The notes: generated by a model from the letters alone, not told the origin. A stretch of DNA of 64,000 bases from Clostridia bacterium (GCA_045588915.1 JAZNFA010000008.1:139744-203743); one strand, 5' to 3'; shown: positions 1-30,590, numbered from the stretch's first letter. Program-made: numbers and translations.

Positions 1-887
<887 letters not shown>

Positions 888-901
888 GAAGGAGAAGGAA
901 A

Positions 902-3900
902 ATGTTTGAATTAAATAATTTTGAAAGTTTGAAGATTAGTATTGCTAGCCCTGACAAAATCAGAGAATGGAGTCACGGCGAGGTTACAAAACCTGAAACG
1001 ATTAACTATCGTACACAAAAACCTGAAAAAGATGGTTTGTTCTGCGAACGTATTTTCGGTCCCAAAAAAGACTGGCAATGTTCTTGTGGTAAATATAAAT
1101 TAATTCGCTATAAAGGAACTGTTTGTGATAAATGTGGTGTTGAAGTTACCCGTTCAATTGTTCGTCGTGAACGTATGGGACATATTGAGTTAGCTGCTCC
1201 TGTTGTTCACATTTGGTATTTCAAAGGTATTATGTCAAAGATTGGTACCTTGTTAAATATGACCATTAAAAATTTGGAACAAGTTATTTATTTTGTTTCT
1301 TTCGTTGTTACCGATCCAGGTAAAACAACATTGTCTTATGGTCAAATTTTATCAGACCGTGAATTACACGAAGCATGGGAAAAGTTTGGTACTGATTCTT
1401 TCAAATCAGGTATGGGTGCTGAAGCAATTAAAACAATGTTAGCATCACTTGATTTAGATAAAGAAATTAAAGAATGTAACGAAATTATTGCAAAAGGTAA
1501 GGGTGCTAAACGTGAAAAAGCAATTAAACGTTTAGACTTACTTGAATCATTTAAAAATAGTGGCAATCGTCCAGAATGGATGGTTTTAGATGTCTTGCCT
1601 GTTACTCCTCCAGAATTACGTCCAATGGTCCAAATTGATGGTGGTCGTTTTGCTACTACAGATGTTAATGATTTGTATCGTCGTGTTATTAACCGTAACA
1701 ATCGTTTGAAAAAATTGATTTCTTTAGGCGCACCTGAAGTTATTATTCGTAACGAAAAACGTATGTTGCAAGAAGCAGTTGATGCTTTGATTGATAATGG
1801 TCGTCGTGGTAAACCTGTTCAAGGTGCTAAAGGTCGCCCATTAAAATCATTGGCTGAAGGTTTACGTGGTAAACAAGGTCGTTTCCGTAATAACTTGTTA
1901 GGTAAACGTGTTGACTATTCAGGTCGTACCGTTATCGTTGTTGGTCCAGAATTGAAACATTATCAAGTTGGTTTACCAAAAGAAATGGCATTAGAACTTT
2001 TCAAACCATTCGTTATGAAGAAGTTGGTTGATATGGGCTTGGCTCATCACAGCCGTAGTGCAAAACGTTTGATTGAACGTGAAAAACCACAAGTTTGGGA
2101 TATTTTGGAAGAAATTGTTCGTGACCATCCTGTTTTGTTAAACCGTCAACCTACGTTGCATAAATTATCAATCCAAGCATTTGAACCTGTCTTAGTTGAT
2201 GGTCGTGCAATTCGTTTACATCCATTAGTTTGTACGGCATTCAACGCTGACTTCGACGGTGACCAAATGACCGTTCACGTTCCATTGTCTCCAGAAGCAC
2301 AAGCAGAAGCACGTGTTTTAATGTTAGCATCAAATAATATCTTGAAACCAAGTGATTCAAAATCTGTTGTTACTCCAACACAGGATATTATTTTGGGTTG
2401 CTACTATATGACTCAACAAATTGATGGTGCAAAAGGTGAAGGCAACGTTTATAAAGACGAAAACGAAGCTATTTACGCTTATAACATCGGTGAGTTGGAT
2501 TTGCATGCCAAAATTCAAGTTCGTCGTTCAAACTTTGAAATTGAAGGTAACCTTGACGAAGAAGAAGAATTTGGTCGTGTTGAAACAACCGTTGGTCGTA
2601 TCTTGTTTAACCAATGTTTCCCACAAGATATCGGTATTGTTGATCGTAGTAAACCAGAAAATAAATTTGCTTACGAAATTAACAAAGAAGTTGTTAAGAA
2701 AGACATCAATAATTTGATTGTTAAAATCTTTGAAACTCACGGTGCAACTGTAACCAGTGAATCAATCGATAAAATTAAAGCAGTTGGTTTCAAATATTCA
2801 ACTTTGGGATCAATTTCATTGTCAGTTTTCGATGCTACCATTCCTGCTGACCGTGAACAAATTATTAAAGACACCGAAGCTAAAGTTAAAAAGATTGAAA
2901 AAGCTTATGCCGAAGGTGAGTTGAGCCTTGATGAAAAATTAGACCGTAACATTGCGTTATGGAAAGATGCAACAGATCGTATTCAAGATGACGTTATTAA
3001 AGTATTGGATAAAACAAATCCAATTCGTATGATGGCAACATCTGGTGCTCGTGGTTCAAACAAACAGATTATGCAGTTGTCTGGTATGCGTGGTATTATT
3101 GCTAACGTTTCTGGACGTAAGGAAGACGTTCCAACCAAAGGTTGTTATCGTTTAGGCTTGTCCCCATTAGAATACTTCTTGTCATCTCGTGGTGGACGTA
3201 AAGGTTTGGCTGATACGGCGTTGAAAACATCTGACGCAGGTTACTTAACTCGTCGTTTGGTTGACGTTGCTCAAGATGTTATCATTACAGAAAAAGACTG
3301 TTTCGCAACCTTAGGTGAAAAACCAAAAGGTATGGTAATGACCGAATTGCGTATGGACGGTTACGTAAAACACTTGTCCAGCCGTATCAAAGGTCGTTAT
3401 GCAGTTCGTGATATTGTTGATCCAAATACCAAGAAAGTATTGGTTGCTGCTGACACAATGATTACTGACCAAATGGCTGATTACATTGAAGCAATTGGTA
3501 TTAAAGAAGTTGAAATCCGTAGCGTATTGACCTGTAAATGCAAACACGGTATTTGTGCAAAATGTTACGGCCGTGATATGAGTGGTCACGAATTGGTTAG
3601 CGTTGGTGAACCAGTTGGTGTTATCGCAGCTCAATCTATTGGTGAACCAGGTACCCAGTTAACCATGCGTACCAAACACAGTGGTGGTATTGCTGTTTCG
3701 AACATTACCGAAGGTTTACCACGTGTTGAAGAAATTTTGGAAGCACGTGTACCAAAGGGTGTTGCGTTGGTTAGTGACGTTGGTGGAACGGTTACAGCTG
3801 TTAACCAAGTTGAAAAACGTGTTGAAGTAATTATTAAGACAACCGAAGGTAAGGAAGTACCATACTTAATTCCAGCAAGTATGAAAGTTATTGTTAAGAA

Positions 3901-4429
3901 AGGTGATGTTGTTGAACCAGGTTCAGCTTTGACCGAAGGTGTCTTCAATCCTCACGATATCTTACGTAACAAAGGTATTAAAGCCGTTCAAGATTACCTT
4001 ATTACTGAAATTATCAAAGTTTATAAGACTCAAGATATTTCAATTAACAATAAACACTTGGAAATTATCGTACGTCAAATGTTGAAGAAAGTTAAAATTG
4101 AAGACGCTGGCGATACTGACTTCCAAATTGGTTCAGTTGTTAATGTTATCGAATTTGAACACAAGAACTTGTTGGCAATCAATGACGGTAAACGTCCAGC
4201 TCGTGCAACCCGTGTCTTATTGTCAATTACGAAAGCAGCTTTACGTACCGACAGCTTCTTGTCAGCTGCATCCTTCCAAGAAACCAGCTCAGTCTTGGTT
4301 GATGCTGCCGTTAAAAACAAAGTTGACTACTTACAAGGTCTTAAAGAAAACGTTATCTTTGGTAAGTTGATTCCAGCTGGTACCGGTATGAAATTTTATC
4401 AAAATGTAGGGTATAAAAATGTTAAGTAA
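902..4429 (+). CDS. rpoC: DNA-directed RNA polymerase subunit beta'
   Basis: 1175 aa. N-terminal zinc motif [14 protein letters not shown], catalytic [23 protein letters not shown] 3-14 nt upstream of the ATG. Confidence 0.98.
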
Positions 4430-4754
4430 TATGAATAATTTATTTTTAGCACCATCAAATATGCCGAAGTGGGTTGGCGACAGTTTCCCCATCATCCAAG
4501 GTATTATTATCGGCTTGATTAGTTTGCTCAGCATTATTATGATTGTGGCGATTCTGGTATCGCCACCGGATGCGGGTACAGGTACAAATGCGATTACCGG
4601 CGCAAGTGAAAGTTACTATACCAAGAACCGTAATAAAAATAATCTTGGTCGTATCCGTAATTTGATTATTATTTGTGCTGTAACAATTGCGATTTTGACA
4701 GTTGTATTCTTCGTAATGTTCGGTATCTTCAATATGTCCGGTACTGCAGCGTAA
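4419..4754 (+). CDS. secG: Probable preprotein translocase subunit SecG (start uncertain: 4419, 4431 or 4461)
   Basis: Two TM helices separated by a Gly/Thr-rich loop ([21 protein letters not shown]), the usual SecG layout. Family assignment rests on pattern only. Confidence 0.5.
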
Positions 4755-4770
4755 TCAAGAAAACACCATA

Positions 4771-4799
4771 AAAAGAGTTGGTCGATGCCAGCTTTTTTT
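4771..4799 (+). terminator. Rho-independent terminator candidate after secG
   Basis: Hairpin AGTTGG-N6-CCAGCT (one G-U pair), flanked by an A-run and followed by T7. Confidence 0.5.
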
Positions 4800-4835
4800 A
4801 TTTGCTTTTTTTTATTTGCTTTTTTTTTTATTTTC
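4800..4835. repeat. Tandem ATTTGC(T)n units containing T8 and T10 homopolymers
   Basis: Read directly: ATTTGC-T8 (4800-4813), ATTTGC-T10 (4814-4829), then ATTTTC. Sits about 66 nt upstream of the ATG at 4895. Confidence 0.9.
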
Positions 4836-4844
4836 ACTCATACT
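4816..4844 (+). promoter_or_regulatory. Candidate promoter TTGCTT-N17-CATACT with the T10 tract inside the spacer
   Basis: Weak hexamers. The position is equivalent to the better-matching promoter candidate upstream of the paralog at 29341. Confidence 0.25.
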
Positions 4845-4845
4845 T

Positions 4846-4950
4846 TAAGTGGTAGTACCACATACTAAAGGTGGAACTATTGTAAGGAGAACAAATGAAT
4901 AATAAATTATTTCGTATTTTAATCTTATTTATTTCAGTTTGCATAGCTTC
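4846..4950 (+). repeat. Conserved 5' cassette (leader, SD and first ~56 nt of CDS), shared with 29290-29396
   Basis: CCACATACTAA...AAGGAGAACAAATGAATAATAAATTATTTCGTATTTTAATCTTATTTATTTC is near-identical at both loci. The first 41 nt of the CDS are identical. Confidence 0.85.
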
Positions 4951-7168
4951 AATATCAACATTGCTAGCATTTAATTTTGGTTTATCAAATTCTGGTTTGA
5001 TGAATAAAAATAGTGATTTAAATAATGAAAAAGAAGATTTATCTAATGAGGCTGATTCACTGAAAGATGTACTAGAGGATTTACAAGATACAATAGTTTT
5101 AAGTCCAAATTTAGCAGTGGTGTCTTATGAAGTGAATGGTGAAATTTGGGACATTAATATGGTGGAAAAGAATAGTCTTATTACACTTCCAACTGGTCCA
5201 AATGTTGGAACCTGTTATTTTAATGGTTGGAAAGTTAATGGTGAAGGTAACACATTAAATAATGTTACCCAAATTACCCAAAATACTAAATTTGTTGCTG
5301 ATATGGTAGAGGCTGATTGGATAGGTGTTGAGCCTTTTAAGTATTTGGCTACTATAAACAGTATCAGTGGTGGTAATATTTGGACGGATGGCACCAACAC
5401 CTATTATTCAGCTGATAACAATCAATATATCTTAAAGGAAAACGACACCTGGGAACCGATAACCTGGAATGGCTGGGGTGAATACGTGTCATTTTATAGT
5501 GATGGTATTTGGACGGATGGCACCAACACATATTATTCGTATGATAACGCCCAATATAAATATATAAAAGCAAACAACATCTGGGAATTGATAACCTGGA
5601 ATGGTTTGTCGCCATATCGTGGTGATTATATTTGGACGGATGGCACCAACACATATTATTCAAGTAGTGGCAGTCAATATATCCTAAAAGCAAACGACAC
5701 CTGGGAACCGATAACCTGGAATGGTTTGACTCCATCTTATGGTAATCGTATTTGGACGGATGGCACCAACACCTATTATTCTTATGGTAGTGATCAATAT
5801 ATCCTAAAAGCAAACAACACCTGGGAACCGATAGCCTGGAATGACTTGACGTCATTTGATGGTCGTTATATTTGGACGGATGGCACCAATACATATTATT
5901 CAAGTGGTAGCAGTCAATATATCTTAAAAGCAAACAACACCTGGGAACCGATGAATTGGTTTACATGGAAACCTTACCATTTTTCTACATCAGGTGGTTT
6001 TGCTCCTGTTCGTGAATTTAATGGCAATTTATATGTAGAAAACTATATTTTGACCGAAAATAATACTTTAGAATCATCTCCTAACAATTTTTCTGTTAAT
6101 TGTGTTTGGACGGATGGCACCAACACCTATTATTCGTGTGGTTACGATCAATATATCTTAAACAAAGAAACCAACACCTGGGAACCGATAACCTGGAATG
6201 GTTTGACGTCAATTGATGTTTATTATATTTGGACGGATGGCACCAACACCTATTATTCGTATGGTGACGAACAATATATCTTAAAAGCAAACAACACCTG
6301 GGAACCGATAACCTGGAATGGTTTGACGTCATTTTATAACAATATTTGGACGGATGGCACCAACACCTATTATTCGTATAATAACGACCAATATATCTTA
6401 AAAGAAAACAACACCTGGAAAAATGTAAGCTGGTCCTATTTTGGAAGTCATACTCTTTACGGTTATGATGTGTGGATGAAAGATGGTTTCGTATATTACT
6501 CATCTGGCAGCAGTCAATATAAGCTGTATGACAAAGAAAAAAGAATTTGGCTTGAAGTAACCTGGAATGGTTTGACGTCGTTTGCTGGTCGTTATATTTG
6601 GACGGATGGCACCAACACCTATTATTCAGCTGATAACAATCAATATATCCTAAAGGAAAACGACACCTGGGAACCGATAACCTGGAATGGTTTGACGTCA
6701 TTTGCTGGTAATTATATTTGGACGGATGGCACCAACACCTATTATTCGTATTATAACAACCAATATATCTTAAAAGCAAACAACACCTGGGAACCAATAA
6801 CCTGGAATGTTTTGAATCCAACTTTAGGTGCTTATATTTGGACGGATGGCACCAACACCTATTATTCGGATTATAACAGTCAATATATCTTAAAAGCAAA
6901 CAACACCTGGGAACCGATAAACTGGAATGGCTTGACGTCATTTTATGGTAATGGTATTTGGACGGATGGCACCAACACCTATTATTCGGATTATAACAGT
7001 CAATATATCTTAAAAGAAAACAACACCTGGTTAGCCAAAGAATTTATTTTCCGTGAATCTGATGGTTCACTAAGAAAAGCAATGGTTTATGGTTCTTGTG
7101 TTTGGTCAGATGGTACAAACTTTTATTATTCGTACGGTAGCGAACAATATGTGTATGTAAAAAAATAA
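4895..7168 (+). CDS. Membrane-anchored surface repeat protein: signal anchor, coiled coil, one Listeria/Bacteroides-type (InlB B-repeat-like) module, then about 15 copies of a 40-aa WTDGTNTYYS repeat
   Basis: SD AAGGAGA 6 nt before the ATG. N-terminal hydrophobic anchor FRILILFISVCIASISTLLAF. Module YEVNGEIW..YFNGWKVNGEG..TKFVADM. 14 clear and 1 degenerate repeat units. Confidence 0.9.
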   Translation: MNNKLFRILILFISVCIASISTLLAFNFGLSNSGLMNKNSDLNNEKEDLSNEADSLKDVLEDLQDTIVLSPNLAVVSYEVNGEIWDINMVEKNSLITLPTGPNVGTCYFNGWKVNGEGNTLNNVTQITQNTKFVADMVEADWIGVEPFKYLATINSISGGNIWTDGTNTYYSADNNQYILKENDTWEPITWNGWGEYVSFYSDGIWTDGTNTYYSYDNAQYKYIKANNIWELITWNGLSPYRGDYIWTDGTNTYYSSSGSQYILKANDTWEPITWNGLTPSYGNRIWTDGTNTYYSYGSDQYILKANNTWEPIAWNDLTSFDGRYIWTDGTNTYYSSGSSQYILKANNTWEPMNWFTWKPYHFSTSGGFAPVREFNGNLYVENYILTENNTLESSPNNFSVNCVWTDGTNTYYSCGYDQYILNKETNTWEPITWNGLTSIDVYYIWTDGTNTYYSYGDEQYILKANNTWEPITWNGLTSFYNNIWTDGTNTYYSYNNDQYILKENNTWKNVSWSYFGSHTLYGYDVWMKDGFVYYSSGSSQYKLYDKEKRIWLEVTWNGLTSFAGRYIWTDGTNTYYSADNNQYILKENDTWEPITWNGLTSFAGNYIWTDGTNTYYSYYNNQYILKANNTWEPITWNVLNPTLGAYIWTDGTNTYYSDYNSQYILKANNTWEPINWNGLTSFYGNGIWTDGTNTYYSDYNSQYILKENNTWLAKEFIFRESDGSLRKAMVYGSCVWSDGTNFYYSYGSEQYVYVKK
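5381..7140 (+). repeat. In-frame tandem DNA repeats, period 117-129 bp
   Basis: TGGACGGATGGCACCAA recurs at 5381, 5510, 5633, 5753, 5873, 6107, 6230, 6347, 6599, 6719, 6839 and 6959. Diverged copies lie near 6470 and 7100. Many units share 30+ identical nt. Confidence 0.95.
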
Positions 7169-7189
7169 CAAACATTAAAAATGTTTTCA

Positions 7190-7218
7190 ACAGTGGCACA
7201 CAAGTCACTGTTTTTTTT
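7190..7218 (+). terminator. Rho-independent terminator after the repeat-protein gene
   Basis: ACAGTG-N10-CACTGT followed by T8. A second small hairpin AAACAT-TAAAA-ATGTTT at 7170-7186 could serve the convergent rnr. Confidence 0.65.
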
Positions 7219-27656: not shown

Positions 27657-28805
27657 ATGAGTTACGAATTAGAAACTGCAGTAGAATTAAAAACCAGCAA
27701 GCAATTCGAGGATGTGTTTGGTAATCCTCCTGTTGTCAACATTAAAGTTGTTGGTGTCGGTGGTGGTGGATGTAATAGCATTAACCGTATGTTGGAAACT
27801 GGTGTAAATTTGCCCGGTGTAGAATTTATTGCTATCAATACAGACAAAAACGCATTGTCCGTTAATTTGGCAGAAGAAAAATTATGTATTGGGCAACAAG
27901 TTACCCGAGGTTTTGGTGCAGGAACTAAGCCAGATGTTGGTCAAAAGGCTGCCGAAGAAAGTGCTGATGAAATCCGTGCTGCAATTGATGGTGCAGATAT
28001 GTTATTCATTACTGCTGGTATGGGTGGTGGTACTGGTACAGGTGCAGCACCTATCGTTGCACAAATTGCCAGAGAAATGGGTATCTTGACGGTGGCTGTT
28101 GTGACTAAACCATTCAAATTTGAAGGTGCACATCGTATGATGAACGCTGAAATTGGTTTAGAAAATTTAGCAAAATGTGTTGATGCTTATGTTGTTGTTC
28201 CTAACCAAAAATTGGTTGAACATTCATCGGTTAAAACCAGCTTTATTGATGCATTCAAAATGGCAGATGAAGCATTACGACAAGCTGTTATTGGTTTGTC
28301 CGAAGTTATTGTTAATCCAACTTATGTTAACGTTGACTATGCTGATATTAAAGTTGTCTTGGAAAATGCCGGTTTGGCACATATGGGTGTTGGTCGTGCG
28401 CAAGGTCCAAATCGTGTCTTAGAAGCAATTAAGCAAGCAGTCGCAAGTCCTTTGATTGAAACCAGTATTAGTGGTGCAACTCGTTTGATTATGTGCATTA
28501 AGGGTGACGCAACATTACCTTTAGCAGAAGTTTCAAGTTATGTAACGATGGCAAGTAACTTGGTTCACGAAAACTGCAATATCAAATGGAGTGTTGATAT
28601 CAATGAGAAATATGGTGATAGTGTTGAGGTTTTGATTATTGCTTCAGGTTTTGCGCCAAATCAAGCAGAAACTCGTAACCGTATCAACAATCTTGGACCC
28701 GATGATATTGCGCAACCTGAACCAGTTAAACCAGAGCCACCAGTAACCGGTCAGGCACCAAAATATTTCCGTAACTTCAAGAATTTTTTCAAAAGTAATC
28801 GTTGA
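27657..28805 (+). CDS. ftsZ: Cell division protein FtsZ
   Basis: GVGGGGCN and tubulin signature [17 protein letters not shown] upstream of the ATG at 27657. Confidence 0.97.
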
Positions 28806-28831
28806 CTTTATTAGGTAAAATTTGTTATAAT
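28802..28831 (+). promoter_or_regulatory. Promoter candidate for rpsO (TTGACT-N18-TATAAT with TGT extended -10)
   Basis: Read directly: TTGACT at 28802-28807, TGTTATAAT at 28823-28831. Confidence 0.5.
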
Positions 28832-29164: not shown

Positions 29165-29188
29165 TCTATTTTAAAAATTGTTTTTTAG

Positions 29189-29218
29189 ACCTTTATCATA
29201 ATGATGAAGGTTTTTTTT
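29189..29218 (+). terminator. Rho-independent terminator after rpsO
   Basis: ACCTTTATC...GATGAAGGT stem (one G-U pair) followed by T8. Confidence 0.8.
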
Positions 29219-29259
29219 ATGTTTTTTTACGGATGAAATTGAAGATTACAAGAAATCGG

Positions 29260-29289
29260 TTGATTTTTTTTTTTTTTTTCTATTATAAG
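29260..29289 (+). promoter_or_regulatory. Candidate promoter TTGATT-(T tract spacer)-TATTAT/TATAAG
   Basis: -35-like TTGATT at 29260-29265. The -10-like hexamers are TATTAT (29281-29286, spacer 15) or TATAAG (29284-29289, spacer 18). The spacer is almost entirely the T16 run. Confidence 0.35.
29264..29279. repeat. Homopolymeric T16 tract
   Basis: Counted directly (7 + 9 T). Lies 62 nt upstream of the ATG at 29341. Confidence 0.97.
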
Positions 29290-29396
29290 TTTAGTAGTAG
29301 TGCCACATACTAATGCTGGGACTATACAAAAGGAGAACAAATGAATAATAAATTATTTCGTATTTTAATCTTATTTATTTCCGTTTGTGTTGCTTC
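29290..29396 (+). repeat. Conserved 5' cassette, second copy (see 4846-4950)
   Basis: Near-identical leader, SD and first ~56 nt of the CDS. Confidence 0.85.
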
Positions 29397-30537
29397 GGTG
29401 ACAACATTATTGGCTGTCAGCTTCGGTTTGTCCAACACAGGCTTGTCGAACAAAAACAACCAATTGGACGAAGAAAATAAAGACTTAAACGATGAAGTTC
29501 AAGAATTGAACAAAGTTGTCGACAAGTTGCAAGATACCATTGATAACTTGGATGAACATGCTGCCATTGCTACTTATGTTGTCGACGGTGCAGTTTGGCG
29601 CATTCAAATTGTTCAAAAAAATAAAGAATTTGAGTTGCCGGTAATAGAAGAAACTGATACTCAAGTTTATAATGGTTGGAAAATTGATGGTATTGGCGAA
29701 TCAATGACCAAATGCGCAATTACGGATGATACAGAATTTGTGCTTGATATGGTAAACAAGGACTGGGTCAAAGTTAATTGGTACGGTTTAAATAATTTCA
29801 ATGCAAACAACATTTGGACGGACGGTACCGATTATTATTACAGTGATGGTACATACCATTTCAAAAAAGATGCAGCGAACAACGCTTGGGAACAAGTAAC
29901 TTGGTCGGGTTTAACCGATTTTAAGGGACAATATGTTTGGAATTATAACGGCAAAACATATTATTCGTATGCTACTACGACAGGCGGAGGAAACAAAAAT
30001 TACGTTTTGAATACAGCTAACAATACGTGGCTCACCACCGGTTGGTCAGAATTTCTTGTAGGTAATTATATTTTTGTCATCGATGGAGTTTGTTACTATA
30101 ATGATATGACTTCTCCATTTACTGGTGAGTATAGGTTTGACGGTGAAACTTGGGAGAAAATTTCTGCTGGTAACATTATTGGTGGTTCTGTTTGGACTGA
30201 TGGAATTGATTTTTATGCTTGTAACACTACGCCAGGTCGGTATGGTGGTAATCTGATATGGAACCGTAATACTGGCAAATGGGAAACCATCTCGTGGAAA
30301 GGTGTGGTGGCTAATGCGACTGATGATAGAATGTATGGCCGTAATGTTTGGACGGACGGCACCAACTTGTATTATTCCAGTAGTGTAGCAAATGCCGTCA
30401 TTGATATTAAAAACCTTACTTTATCTGAAAAAACATGGATTGGTGGACCAAGTAGTTTGGATGGACAAGATATTTGGACGGACGGCGAAAACATTTATTA
30501 TTCAAACGGTAGCGAACAATATGTTTTTGCAAAATAA
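29341..30537 (+). CDS. Membrane-anchored surface repeat protein, shorter paralog (about 6 diverged WTDG..YYS units)
   Basis: Same N-terminus (MNNKLFRILILFISVC), coiled coil, B-repeat-like module (YVVDGAVW..YNGWKIDGIGE..TEFVLDM). Units IWTDGTDYYYS, VWNYNGKTYYS, VWTDGIDFYA, VWTDGTNLYYS and IWTDGENIYYS. Same C-terminal GSEQYV motif. Confidence 0.9.
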   Translation: MNNKLFRILILFISVCVASVTTLLAVSFGLSNTGLSNKNNQLDEENKDLNDEVQELNKVVDKLQDTIDNLDEHAAIATYVVDGAVWRIQIVQKNKEFELPVIEETDTQVYNGWKIDGIGESMTKCAITDDTEFVLDMVNKDWVKVNWYGLNNFNANNIWTDGTDYYYSDGTYHFKKDAANNAWEQVTWSGLTDFKGQYVWNYNGKTYYSYATTTGGGNKNYVLNTANNTWLTTGWSEFLVGNYIFVIDGVCYYNDMTSPFTGEYRFDGETWEKISAGNIIGGSVWTDGIDFYACNTTPGRYGGNLIWNRNTGKWETISWKGVVANATDDRMYGRNVWTDGTNLYYSSSVANAVIDIKNLTLSEKTWIGGPSSLDGQDIWTDGENIYYSNGSEQYVFAK

Positions 30538-30562
30538 TTAACATAAAAAAATCATTTGACTA

Positions 30563-30590
30563 TTGACATTTGATTGTTGTATGATATAAT
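30563..30590 (+). promoter_or_regulatory. Strong sigma-A promoter candidate for the infC operon (TTGACA-N16-TATAAT, TGA extended -10)
   Basis: Perfect hexamers read directly at 30563-30568 and 30585-30590. Confidence 0.65.

Follow-up and report, generated by a model that had tools for sequence, protein, structure and literature searches.

The window, that is, the whole stretch of 64,000 nucleotides analysed here, has a G+C content of about 34% and comes from an uncultured, small-genome, low-GC Firmicute commensal of the herbivore gut (Clostridia). Its gene order runs rpoB, rpoC, secG (stop codon at 4752-4754), a gene for a 757-aa protein (4895-7168) and rnr on the minus strand; further along stand ftsZ, rpsO, a gene for a 398-aa protein (29341-30537) and infC. 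The two protein-coding genes placed beside secG and rpsO are members of one family, with the following predicted products:

4895 to 7168, plus strand: 757-aa family member; a membrane helix at the N terminus and a coiled coil are followed by a small beta domain and by some 14 propeller repeats of the 'IWTDGTNTYYS' type.
29341 to 30537, plus strand: 398-aa paralog; the model has a TM helix and a coiled coil, then a small beta domain, and a Kelch-like propeller of six blades.

The 757-aa and 398-aa proteins are 38% identical overall and almost identical at their N-termini, where a basic stretch is followed by a hydrophobic helix. Searches of both proteins in Pfam, NCBIfam and PDB sequences gave no significant family, and at least 689 homologues were scored in metagenomes at E <= 1e-3. 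In the AlphaFold model of the 398-aa paralog (pLDDT 85), membrane anchor and coiled coil form one long N-terminal helix, and the rest is a small beta domain with a propeller of six blades; the best structural matches of the model in Foldseek are Kelch domains (E ~1e-7). No lipobox was found in the N terminus MNNKLFRILILFISVCIASISTLL, since the residues I-S-V before Cys16 do not fit as judged by eye, and the model has a continuous helix into the coiled coil. The product is plausibly a surface-exposed, type-II-anchored protein combining a coiled coil with a Kelch-like beta-propeller. The membrane helix, coiled coil and beta-propeller predicted in this way agree with the surface-protein family put forward by a sequence-only reading of the window.

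The same reading had pointed to T8 and T10 homopolymers in tandem ATTTGC(T)n units ahead of the ATG at 4895, and the sequence agrees. The features of this secG-locus copy, referred to as type A, are as follows:

4768 to 4801, plus strand: terminator-like hairpin of secG with a T7 tail at 4793-4799; 15 pairs, 3 of them G-C, thus weak.
4793 to 4827, plus strand: perfect 14-bp tandem duplication TTTTTTTATTTGCT, 2.5 copies with 100% matches (TRF).
4806 to 4813, plus strand: T8 run, 5' of the -35-like hexamer and outside the spacer, within the 14-bp tandem duplication.
4816 to 4821, plus strand: -35-like hexamer TTGCTT, 3/6 consensus, aligned with the conserved TTGATT of the paralog-type cassette.
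4820 to 4834, plus strand: interrupted tract T10-A-T4, which makes up most of the 17-nt spacer and corresponds to what would be an uninterrupted T15 in a paralog-type cassette.
4839 to 4844, plus strand: -10-like hexamer CATACT, 4/6 consensus; its positional homologues are TATAAG in the paralog and TATAAT in L008, a distant relative.
4851 to 4881, plus strand: conserved leader hairpin or inverted repeat GGTAGT-A-CCAC ... GTGG-A-ACTATT (-9.2 kcal/mol, z -1.4).
4884 to 4889, plus strand: Shine-Dalgarno (SD) sequence AAGGAG; the block AAGGAGAACAAATGAATAATAAATTATTTCG is identical in both paralogs.

After the T7 tail, the order is ATTTGC (4800-4805), T8 (4806-4813), ATTTGC (4814-4819) and T10 (4820-4829), then A (4830), T4 (4831-4834) and CACTCATACT, with CACT preceding CATACT. 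As the TRF repeat covers 4793-4827, the 'ATTTGC(T)n units' are the duplicated terminator tail plus the hexamer. Two (A)TTTGC units are present in all seven type-A assemblies, and the terminator-like stem of secG is stronger in related strains with an unchanged layout. The T8 run, which is T8 in the window, L015, L016, L018 and L021 and T9 in L014 and L017, may serve as A/T-rich UP-like DNA. The arrangement TTGCTT-N17-CATACT stands around the T10 as had been described, yet it matches the consensus at 7/12 positions and received no call in a promoter scan.

The rpsO-locus copy, referred to as type B, carries the corresponding features:

29260 to 29265, plus strand: -35-like TTGATT of the paralog-type cassette, its TTGA invariant in at least four genomic contexts.
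29264 to 29279, plus strand: uninterrupted T16 tract, varying from 9 to 21 between strains, loci and species.
29281 to 29289, plus strand: overlapping -10 candidates TATTAT (29281-29286) and TATAAG (29284-29289), from the sequence and from a scan call in the T18 allele.
29294 to 29327, plus strand: leader hairpin of the paralog (-11.4 kcal/mol, z -2.75).

The coordinates confirm that the T16 lies at a matching distance from its start codon, with 66 nt from run end to ATG in the secG-locus copy versus 62 nt in the paralog, or 61 versus 62 nt when T10-A-T4 is taken as the tract. A terminator function was considered for T16 and ruled out, as there is no G+C-rich hairpin ahead of it and rpsO has its real terminator 50 nt upstream (29187-29213). 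Counted from the ATG, the two window paralogs are near-identical between about -65 and +69. The common leader noted earlier amounts to 82% identity over -44..-1, followed by 87% over +1..+69 and by 51-61% further downstream.

The comparison relies on several sets of contigs. An exact-protein look-up of S15 led to ten contigs from other metagenomes, and further ones were obtained through close SecG homologues. A DNA pattern made from the leader retrieved the NCBI MAG 'Clostridia bacterium' (JAZSAE01, L011) and a giraffe gut co-assembly, and the MAG L028 (GCA_965319205.1) was reached via one distant protein match. When scanned with a DNA pattern, genome contigs yielded a single locus and metagenomes two, one of which (L012) is a chance match; viral contigs, scanned for the cassette, gave no match. 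Exact-protein look-ups of the window SecG, with two start codons, and of the 757-aa protein returned no record, and the N-terminal 142 aa, used as a protein query, had only 2 matches. L001, L002, L013-L015, L019 and L021 are of the same species as the window (96-98% identical), L019 being a strain at 97.6%, L016 is 95% identical, and L022, at about 89.5%, is another species.

The 5' region forms a cassette with a constant order: TTGA, T(n), CTATTATAAG, the hairpin leader, the SD and a coding start reading MNNKLFRIL. The type B pattern can be written (A/T)xGGTTGA-T(n)-CTATTATA(A/C)G-TT(T/G)AGTAGTAGT.CCAC.TACTAA... and is conserved across loci and species, being seen in at least four genomic contexts and at least three species-level lineages, all among related assemblies:

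Context 1: 3' of rpsO (window, L001-L013).
Context 2: 3' of secG (L019, L022).
Context 3: 3' of an unrelated gene (L011, NCBI MAG JAZSAE01).
Context 4: within an unrelated gene array (L028, GCA_965319205.1).

Twelve aligned cassettes agree in TTGA and in the -10 region and diverge 5' of TTGA. In L028, the sequence 5' of TTGA is replaced by an unrelated terminator.

The tract itself is polymorphic in length between populations. Type-B tracts are uninterrupted and range from T9 to T21, which includes simple-sequence tracts long enough for hypermutability (T16, T14-T21):

n=16: window, rpsO locus.
n=14: L002 and L013 (one haplotype); L003, L005, L007 and L010 (another haplotype).
n=9: L001, L006.
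n=18: L011, 3' of an unrelated gene.
n=18: L019, secG locus of the 97.6%-identical strain.
n=21: L022, secG locus of another species.
n=20: L028, inside an unrelated gene array.

At the secG locus, the type-A tract changes otherwise:

Window, L015, L016, L018: T10-A-T4, unchanged.
L021: pure T15, by an A to T substitution with the length kept.
L014, L017: C-T8-AA-TTT, by T to C and T to A substitutions; the length is the same as far as it can be read, these contigs ending in the tract.

Thus, T10 is the same in 4/4 assemblies with the T10-A-T4 architecture, and the spacer between TTGCTT and CATACT is constant at 17 nt in the 5/5 assemblies covering both hexamers. The proposal that tract lengths would differ across strains is borne out for the paralog-type copies (9, 14, 16, 18, 18, 20, 21) and fails for the T10 first singled out, which is constant and around which the changes are substitutions.

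The T10 and T16 are the only homopolymers (A/T runs) of at least 10 nt in the 64-kb window, and a first-order Markov expectation, calculated analytically, is 6.7 runs of at least 10 and 0.03 runs of at least 16. By itself, T10 is unexceptional for this composition. In about 135 kb from 30 related loci, all homopolymers of at least 10 nt sit at the homologous cassette position, and because every such run does so, the association of the tract with the gene family is far beyond chance. These figures also uphold the earlier argument that the arrangement, found twice, is unlikely to be a coincidence.

In type B, the tract fills the gap between the conserved -35-like TTGATT and the -10 region, which begins 1-4 nt after the tract. 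The spacer to TATAAG equals n+2 (11, 16, 18, 20, 22 and 23 nt in the alleles collected), and for TATTAT, which overlaps it and is the better hexamer, the spacer equals n-1 (8, 13, 15, 17, 19 and 20 nt), the spacing from TTGATT to the -10 across alleles being 11 to 23 nt. The -10 assignment is ambiguous, as TATAAG lacks the conserved final T and is overlapped by TATTAT. The promoter scan called TTGATT-N17-TATTAT in the T18 allele and made no call for the T16 or T20 alleles. The distant relative L008, devoid of tract, displays TTGTTA-N17-TATAAT at the aligned position; together with the N17 of type A, this identifies the homologous -10 as the TATAAG/CATACT position, type A being equivalent to a type B with n=15.

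Consensus matches are 7/12 for type A and 9/12 for type B, which is weak versus housekeeping promoters. Within the window, near-perfect extended -10 promoters of the sigma-A type precede rpsO (TTGACT-N18-tgTATAAT, 28802-28831) and infC (TTGACA-N16-tgTATAAT, 30563-30590), and the promoters of L028 read TTGAC(A/T)-N17/18-TATAAT. Given these canonical promoters of the window and of L028, a sigma-A-type reading is appropriate. Other promoters were sought 5' of the tracts, and none with acceptable hexamers and spacing was found on the plus strand. Consensus and homology support a location of the tract within the core promoter, from -35 to -10, and from these sequences we infer the identity of the hexamers and the transcription start, predicted about 7 nt past the -10 (~4850-4852 and 29293-29297), just before the leader hairpin.

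All variants can fold the leader hairpin TAGT-N-CCA(C)...(G)TGG-N-ACTA, with energies between -8 and -12 kcal/mol and with the SD left unpaired. Its pairs are mostly conserved in sequence with little covariation, namely two G-C to G-U changes and one compensatory change in L008. Either a 5'-terminal stabilising RNA stem-loop or a DNA operator palindrome would be compatible with such a sequence. An Rfam scan of the whole window gave no family; the leader is therefore not a known riboswitch or leader RNA.

Taken together, both genes are members of a dispersed family whose predicted proteins combine a membrane anchor, a coiled coil and a beta-propeller, and they share a portable 5' cassette. In order, this cassette comprises a -35-like TTGA(TT), poly-T on the sense strand, the -10 region with CTATTATAAG, about 50 nt of leader opening with the hairpin, a strong SD and a homogenised signal-anchor start. 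In the mechanism proposed here, poly-T acts as the promoter spacer and its length would be altered by slipped-strand mispairing during replication, which would change the distance between -35 and -10 and thereby the promoter strength. About T15 would bring the TATAAG-position -10 to the optimum of 17 nt and about T18 would do so for TATTAT, T9 and T20-21 alleles being assumed to be off or very low. The slippage mechanism, its effect on expression and its reversibility are what we infer from this layout. The T16 at 29264-29279 would be a live variable copy, and it is a good candidate for an active dial.

With moderate confidence, we consider that the poly-T spacer is a slippage-driven expression dial in the family cassette and that the secG-locus copy is a diverged, stable derivative of it. 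The anatomy speaks strongly for such a dial in the family and the paralog, and weakly in the secG-locus tract. The slippage switch first proposed for the T8 and T10 is thus plausible for the family and the paralog, where the tract is in the spacer and lengths run from 9 to 21, and is not supported for T8 and T10 themselves, T8 being outside the spacer and T10 of fixed length. Indeed, the secG-locus copy looks like an interrupted and stabilised derivative with no active switch. It has diverged towards weaker hexamers with the 17-nt spacing fixed, most likely giving a weak stable promoter to which read-through from the weak secG terminator possibly adds.

Any long homopolymer would be expected to vary in length; variation is necessary for the switch model and is no proof of it. 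Between strains 96-97% identical over 12 kb, almost all indels lie in intergenic homopolymers, the largest ones (-2 and -7) being at the T16 tract, and coding-region runs are invariant. Intergenic T8, T7 and A7 runs (window 29211-29228 and 30545-30551) differ by 1-3 nt between such strains. It is conceivable, and in our estimation unlikely, that poly-T is neutral hypermutable DNA riding along when the cassette is copied, expression being set by the -10, the leader hairpin or a trans factor. Spacings of 11-23 nt to TTGA are indeed hard to square with a working -35 in most alleles. Neutrality would also suit the steadiness of lengths within a haplotype across samples, the variation of other intergenic T-runs, and the tolerance of type-A copies for an interrupted tract. 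However, substitutions should erode a homopolymer of 14-21 nt that is not under selection, whereas several observations go beyond drift: pure T14-T21 tracts persist across species-level divergence, in at least four contexts and in lineages about 89% identical or less, the TTGA at their 5' edge stays invariant even with all upstream similarity gone, and interrupted copies have kept their total length at exactly 17-nt spacing.

Besides spacing, DNA shape could link tract length to expression. In Helicobacter pylori, the T-tract of sabA stands upstream of the -35 and acts by phasing of an UP-like element (PMC4081817). As in sabA, a sense-strand poly-T here sits beside the core promoter of a gene for an adhesin-type surface protein, with strain lengths in a similar range (T9-T18 and beyond), and by this analogy a graded output is plausible. 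A rheostat of this kind, with bending or alpha-CTD contacts on UP-like DNA and a weak or absent -35, would gain from the demonstration that promoter-adjacent T-tracts work so in sabA (PMC4081817), from observed lengths covering at least one full helical turn and from the extra T7 and T8 runs upstream in the secG-locus copy (~-38 to -62). We nevertheless find it rather improbable. Unlike the sabA tract, the present one is flanked by the conserved TTGA on one side and by the -10 region on the other: the sole conserved -35-like element, this TTGA, is at its upstream edge, which places the tract downstream of the -35, and the -10 follows within 1-4 nt. Of the secG-locus runs, T8 does stand upstream of TTGCTT, but its length is stable. 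Moreover, copies without a pure tract hold the canonical 17-nt spacing.

For the secG-locus copy only, the T-runs might be nothing more than the secG terminator tail and its 14-bp duplication, the gene being mainly read through from the rpoB-rpoC-secG unit with its strong expression. T7 is the terminator tail and 4793-4827 a perfect duplication of this tail plus ATTTGC, the terminator stem is weak with its 3 G-C pairs, and the local promoter is weak as well at 7/12 consensus. Still, this explanation appears very unlikely, as from T10 onward the sequence aligns gap-free to the paralog-type promoter with the 17-nt spacing conserved, and L019 has at its secG locus a full paralog-type cassette with T18. 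Finally, that the length differences are sequencing or assembly artefacts is hardly credible: errors are common in long T-runs, and many contigs stop at the tract or close to it, but identical lengths recur in independent samples and with different assemblers (T14 six times, T10 four times, T9 and T18 twice each), which argues against assembly noise, and differences of 5-12 nt far exceed the typical homopolymer error. T14 is shared by six assemblies of two haplotypes and T10 by four, so that the consensus length follows the lineage and not the sample.

The dial proposed for the family cassette has counterparts in bacteria studied for surface variation. The vlp genes of Mycoplasma hyorhinis, associated with the work of Yogev and colleagues in 1991 and of Citti and Wise in 1995, which PMC4198240 and PMC11868660 have among their references, reportedly carry a poly-A tract in the promoter spacer. 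As in vlp, the homopolymer is located here between -35 and -10, the members of a multigene family share a highly conserved 5' region and signal sequence while their repeat-bearing C-terminal parts diverge, protein size varies by repeat number, and members have separate promoters so that expression could be combinatorial. Unlike vlp, whose products are lipoproteins with short low-complexity repeat units encoded by clustered genes, the present products are no lipoproteins and have a predicted type-II signal anchor, their repeats are structured Kelch-like blades, and their genes are dispersed beside housekeeping genes. The host of the proposed switch differs too, being an uncultured gut Clostridia lineage.

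Promoter-spacer tracts are also carried by Neisseria porA (poly-G) and opc (poly-C) and by Haemophilus hifA/B (TA repeats). There, spacer length sets the -35/-10 distance and, through it, a high, intermediate or absent expression of the surface protein, a relation that would apply in the same way to the present cassette. Whereas those tracts are of G/C or dinucleotides and occur in Gram-negative pathogens, the tract described here is made of T, belongs to a commensal Firmicute of low GC and recurs on a portable cassette. By analogy, the cassette has the architecture of the spacer-length phase or volume control known from vlp, porA and opc, in uncultured gut Clostridia and ahead of an uncharacterised protein family. 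Most documented cases of repeat-driven phase variation come from pathogens, among them Neisseria, Haemophilus, Helicobacter, Campylobacter and Mycoplasma; in gut commensals, invertible promoters have received most of the attention.

The family varies in gene content and structure as well. Repeat regions account for proteins of 178, 398, 624 and 757 aa. At the rpsO-infC locus, the gene encodes 398 aa in the window, L002, L003 and L005, 178 aa in L001 and 624 aa in L030 (15-1889). The 178-aa gene (L001, 6429-6965) results from an in-frame loss leaving one propeller repeat, in the same allele that has T9. At the secG-rnr locus, the family gene is present in some relatives and absent in others. 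In related species with a SecG 90% identical (L023 10337-10395, L024-L027), secG is directly followed by rnr on the minus strand; because secG and rnr are adjacent in these relatives, the cassette and the 757-aa gene represent an insertion at this site (window 4755-7216).

Mosaic alleles are found at the secG locus, where the 5' coding sequence of L015 (1301-1396) and L016 (720-1169) is like that of the rpsO-locus paralog of the window (29341-29440). L018 and L021 match the secG-locus gene of the window (4895-4990), and L019 has a type-B promoter at the secG locus. The pattern across L015, L016, L018, L021 and L019 suggests recombination or gene conversion among paralogs. Homogenised 5' ends, mosaic alleles, changes in repeat number, gene presence or absence and a predicted anchored propeller are hallmarks of variable surface proteins.

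More tentatively, the cassette could be a self-contained portable module spread by gene conversion or insertion, giving a combinatorial, Vlp-like surface variation with three independent layers, i.e., poly-T length, swaps between type A and type B promoters, and propeller-repeat number. Phage or host pressure might drive it; this possibility arises because a distant family member stands in a phage- or plasmid-like context. This member, P0015 (1052 aa, Flg_new domains, 67 member sequences), is located at 2501-8026 of L029, among small genes and beside a REP_ORF2-G2P rolling-circle replication gene, and has no poly-T cassette.

The cassette offers a testable candidate for a homopolymer promoter dial in a gut Firmicute, placed ahead of a widespread and uncharacterised family of anchored beta-propeller proteins. 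If it operates as proposed, the propeller proteins would be targets of fluctuating selection by phage, host immunity or substrate binding, and the tract would be a ready marker of strain-level population dynamics in metagenomes. It would also account for the assembly breaks at these sites in the lineage. The contigs L006, L007, L010, L014, L017, L019, L022 and L030 end in the tract or leader or within about 100 nt of them, a behaviour that either the multi-copy leader or tract-length heterogeneity could cause.

In L028, the cassette gene is nested within a tandem array (356-6884) of paralogs of 306-332 aa with no Pfam matches. In at least four of the six genes of this array, the TTGAC(A/T)-N17/18-TATAAT promoter ends 5-8 nt before the ATG, which implies leaderless mRNAs.
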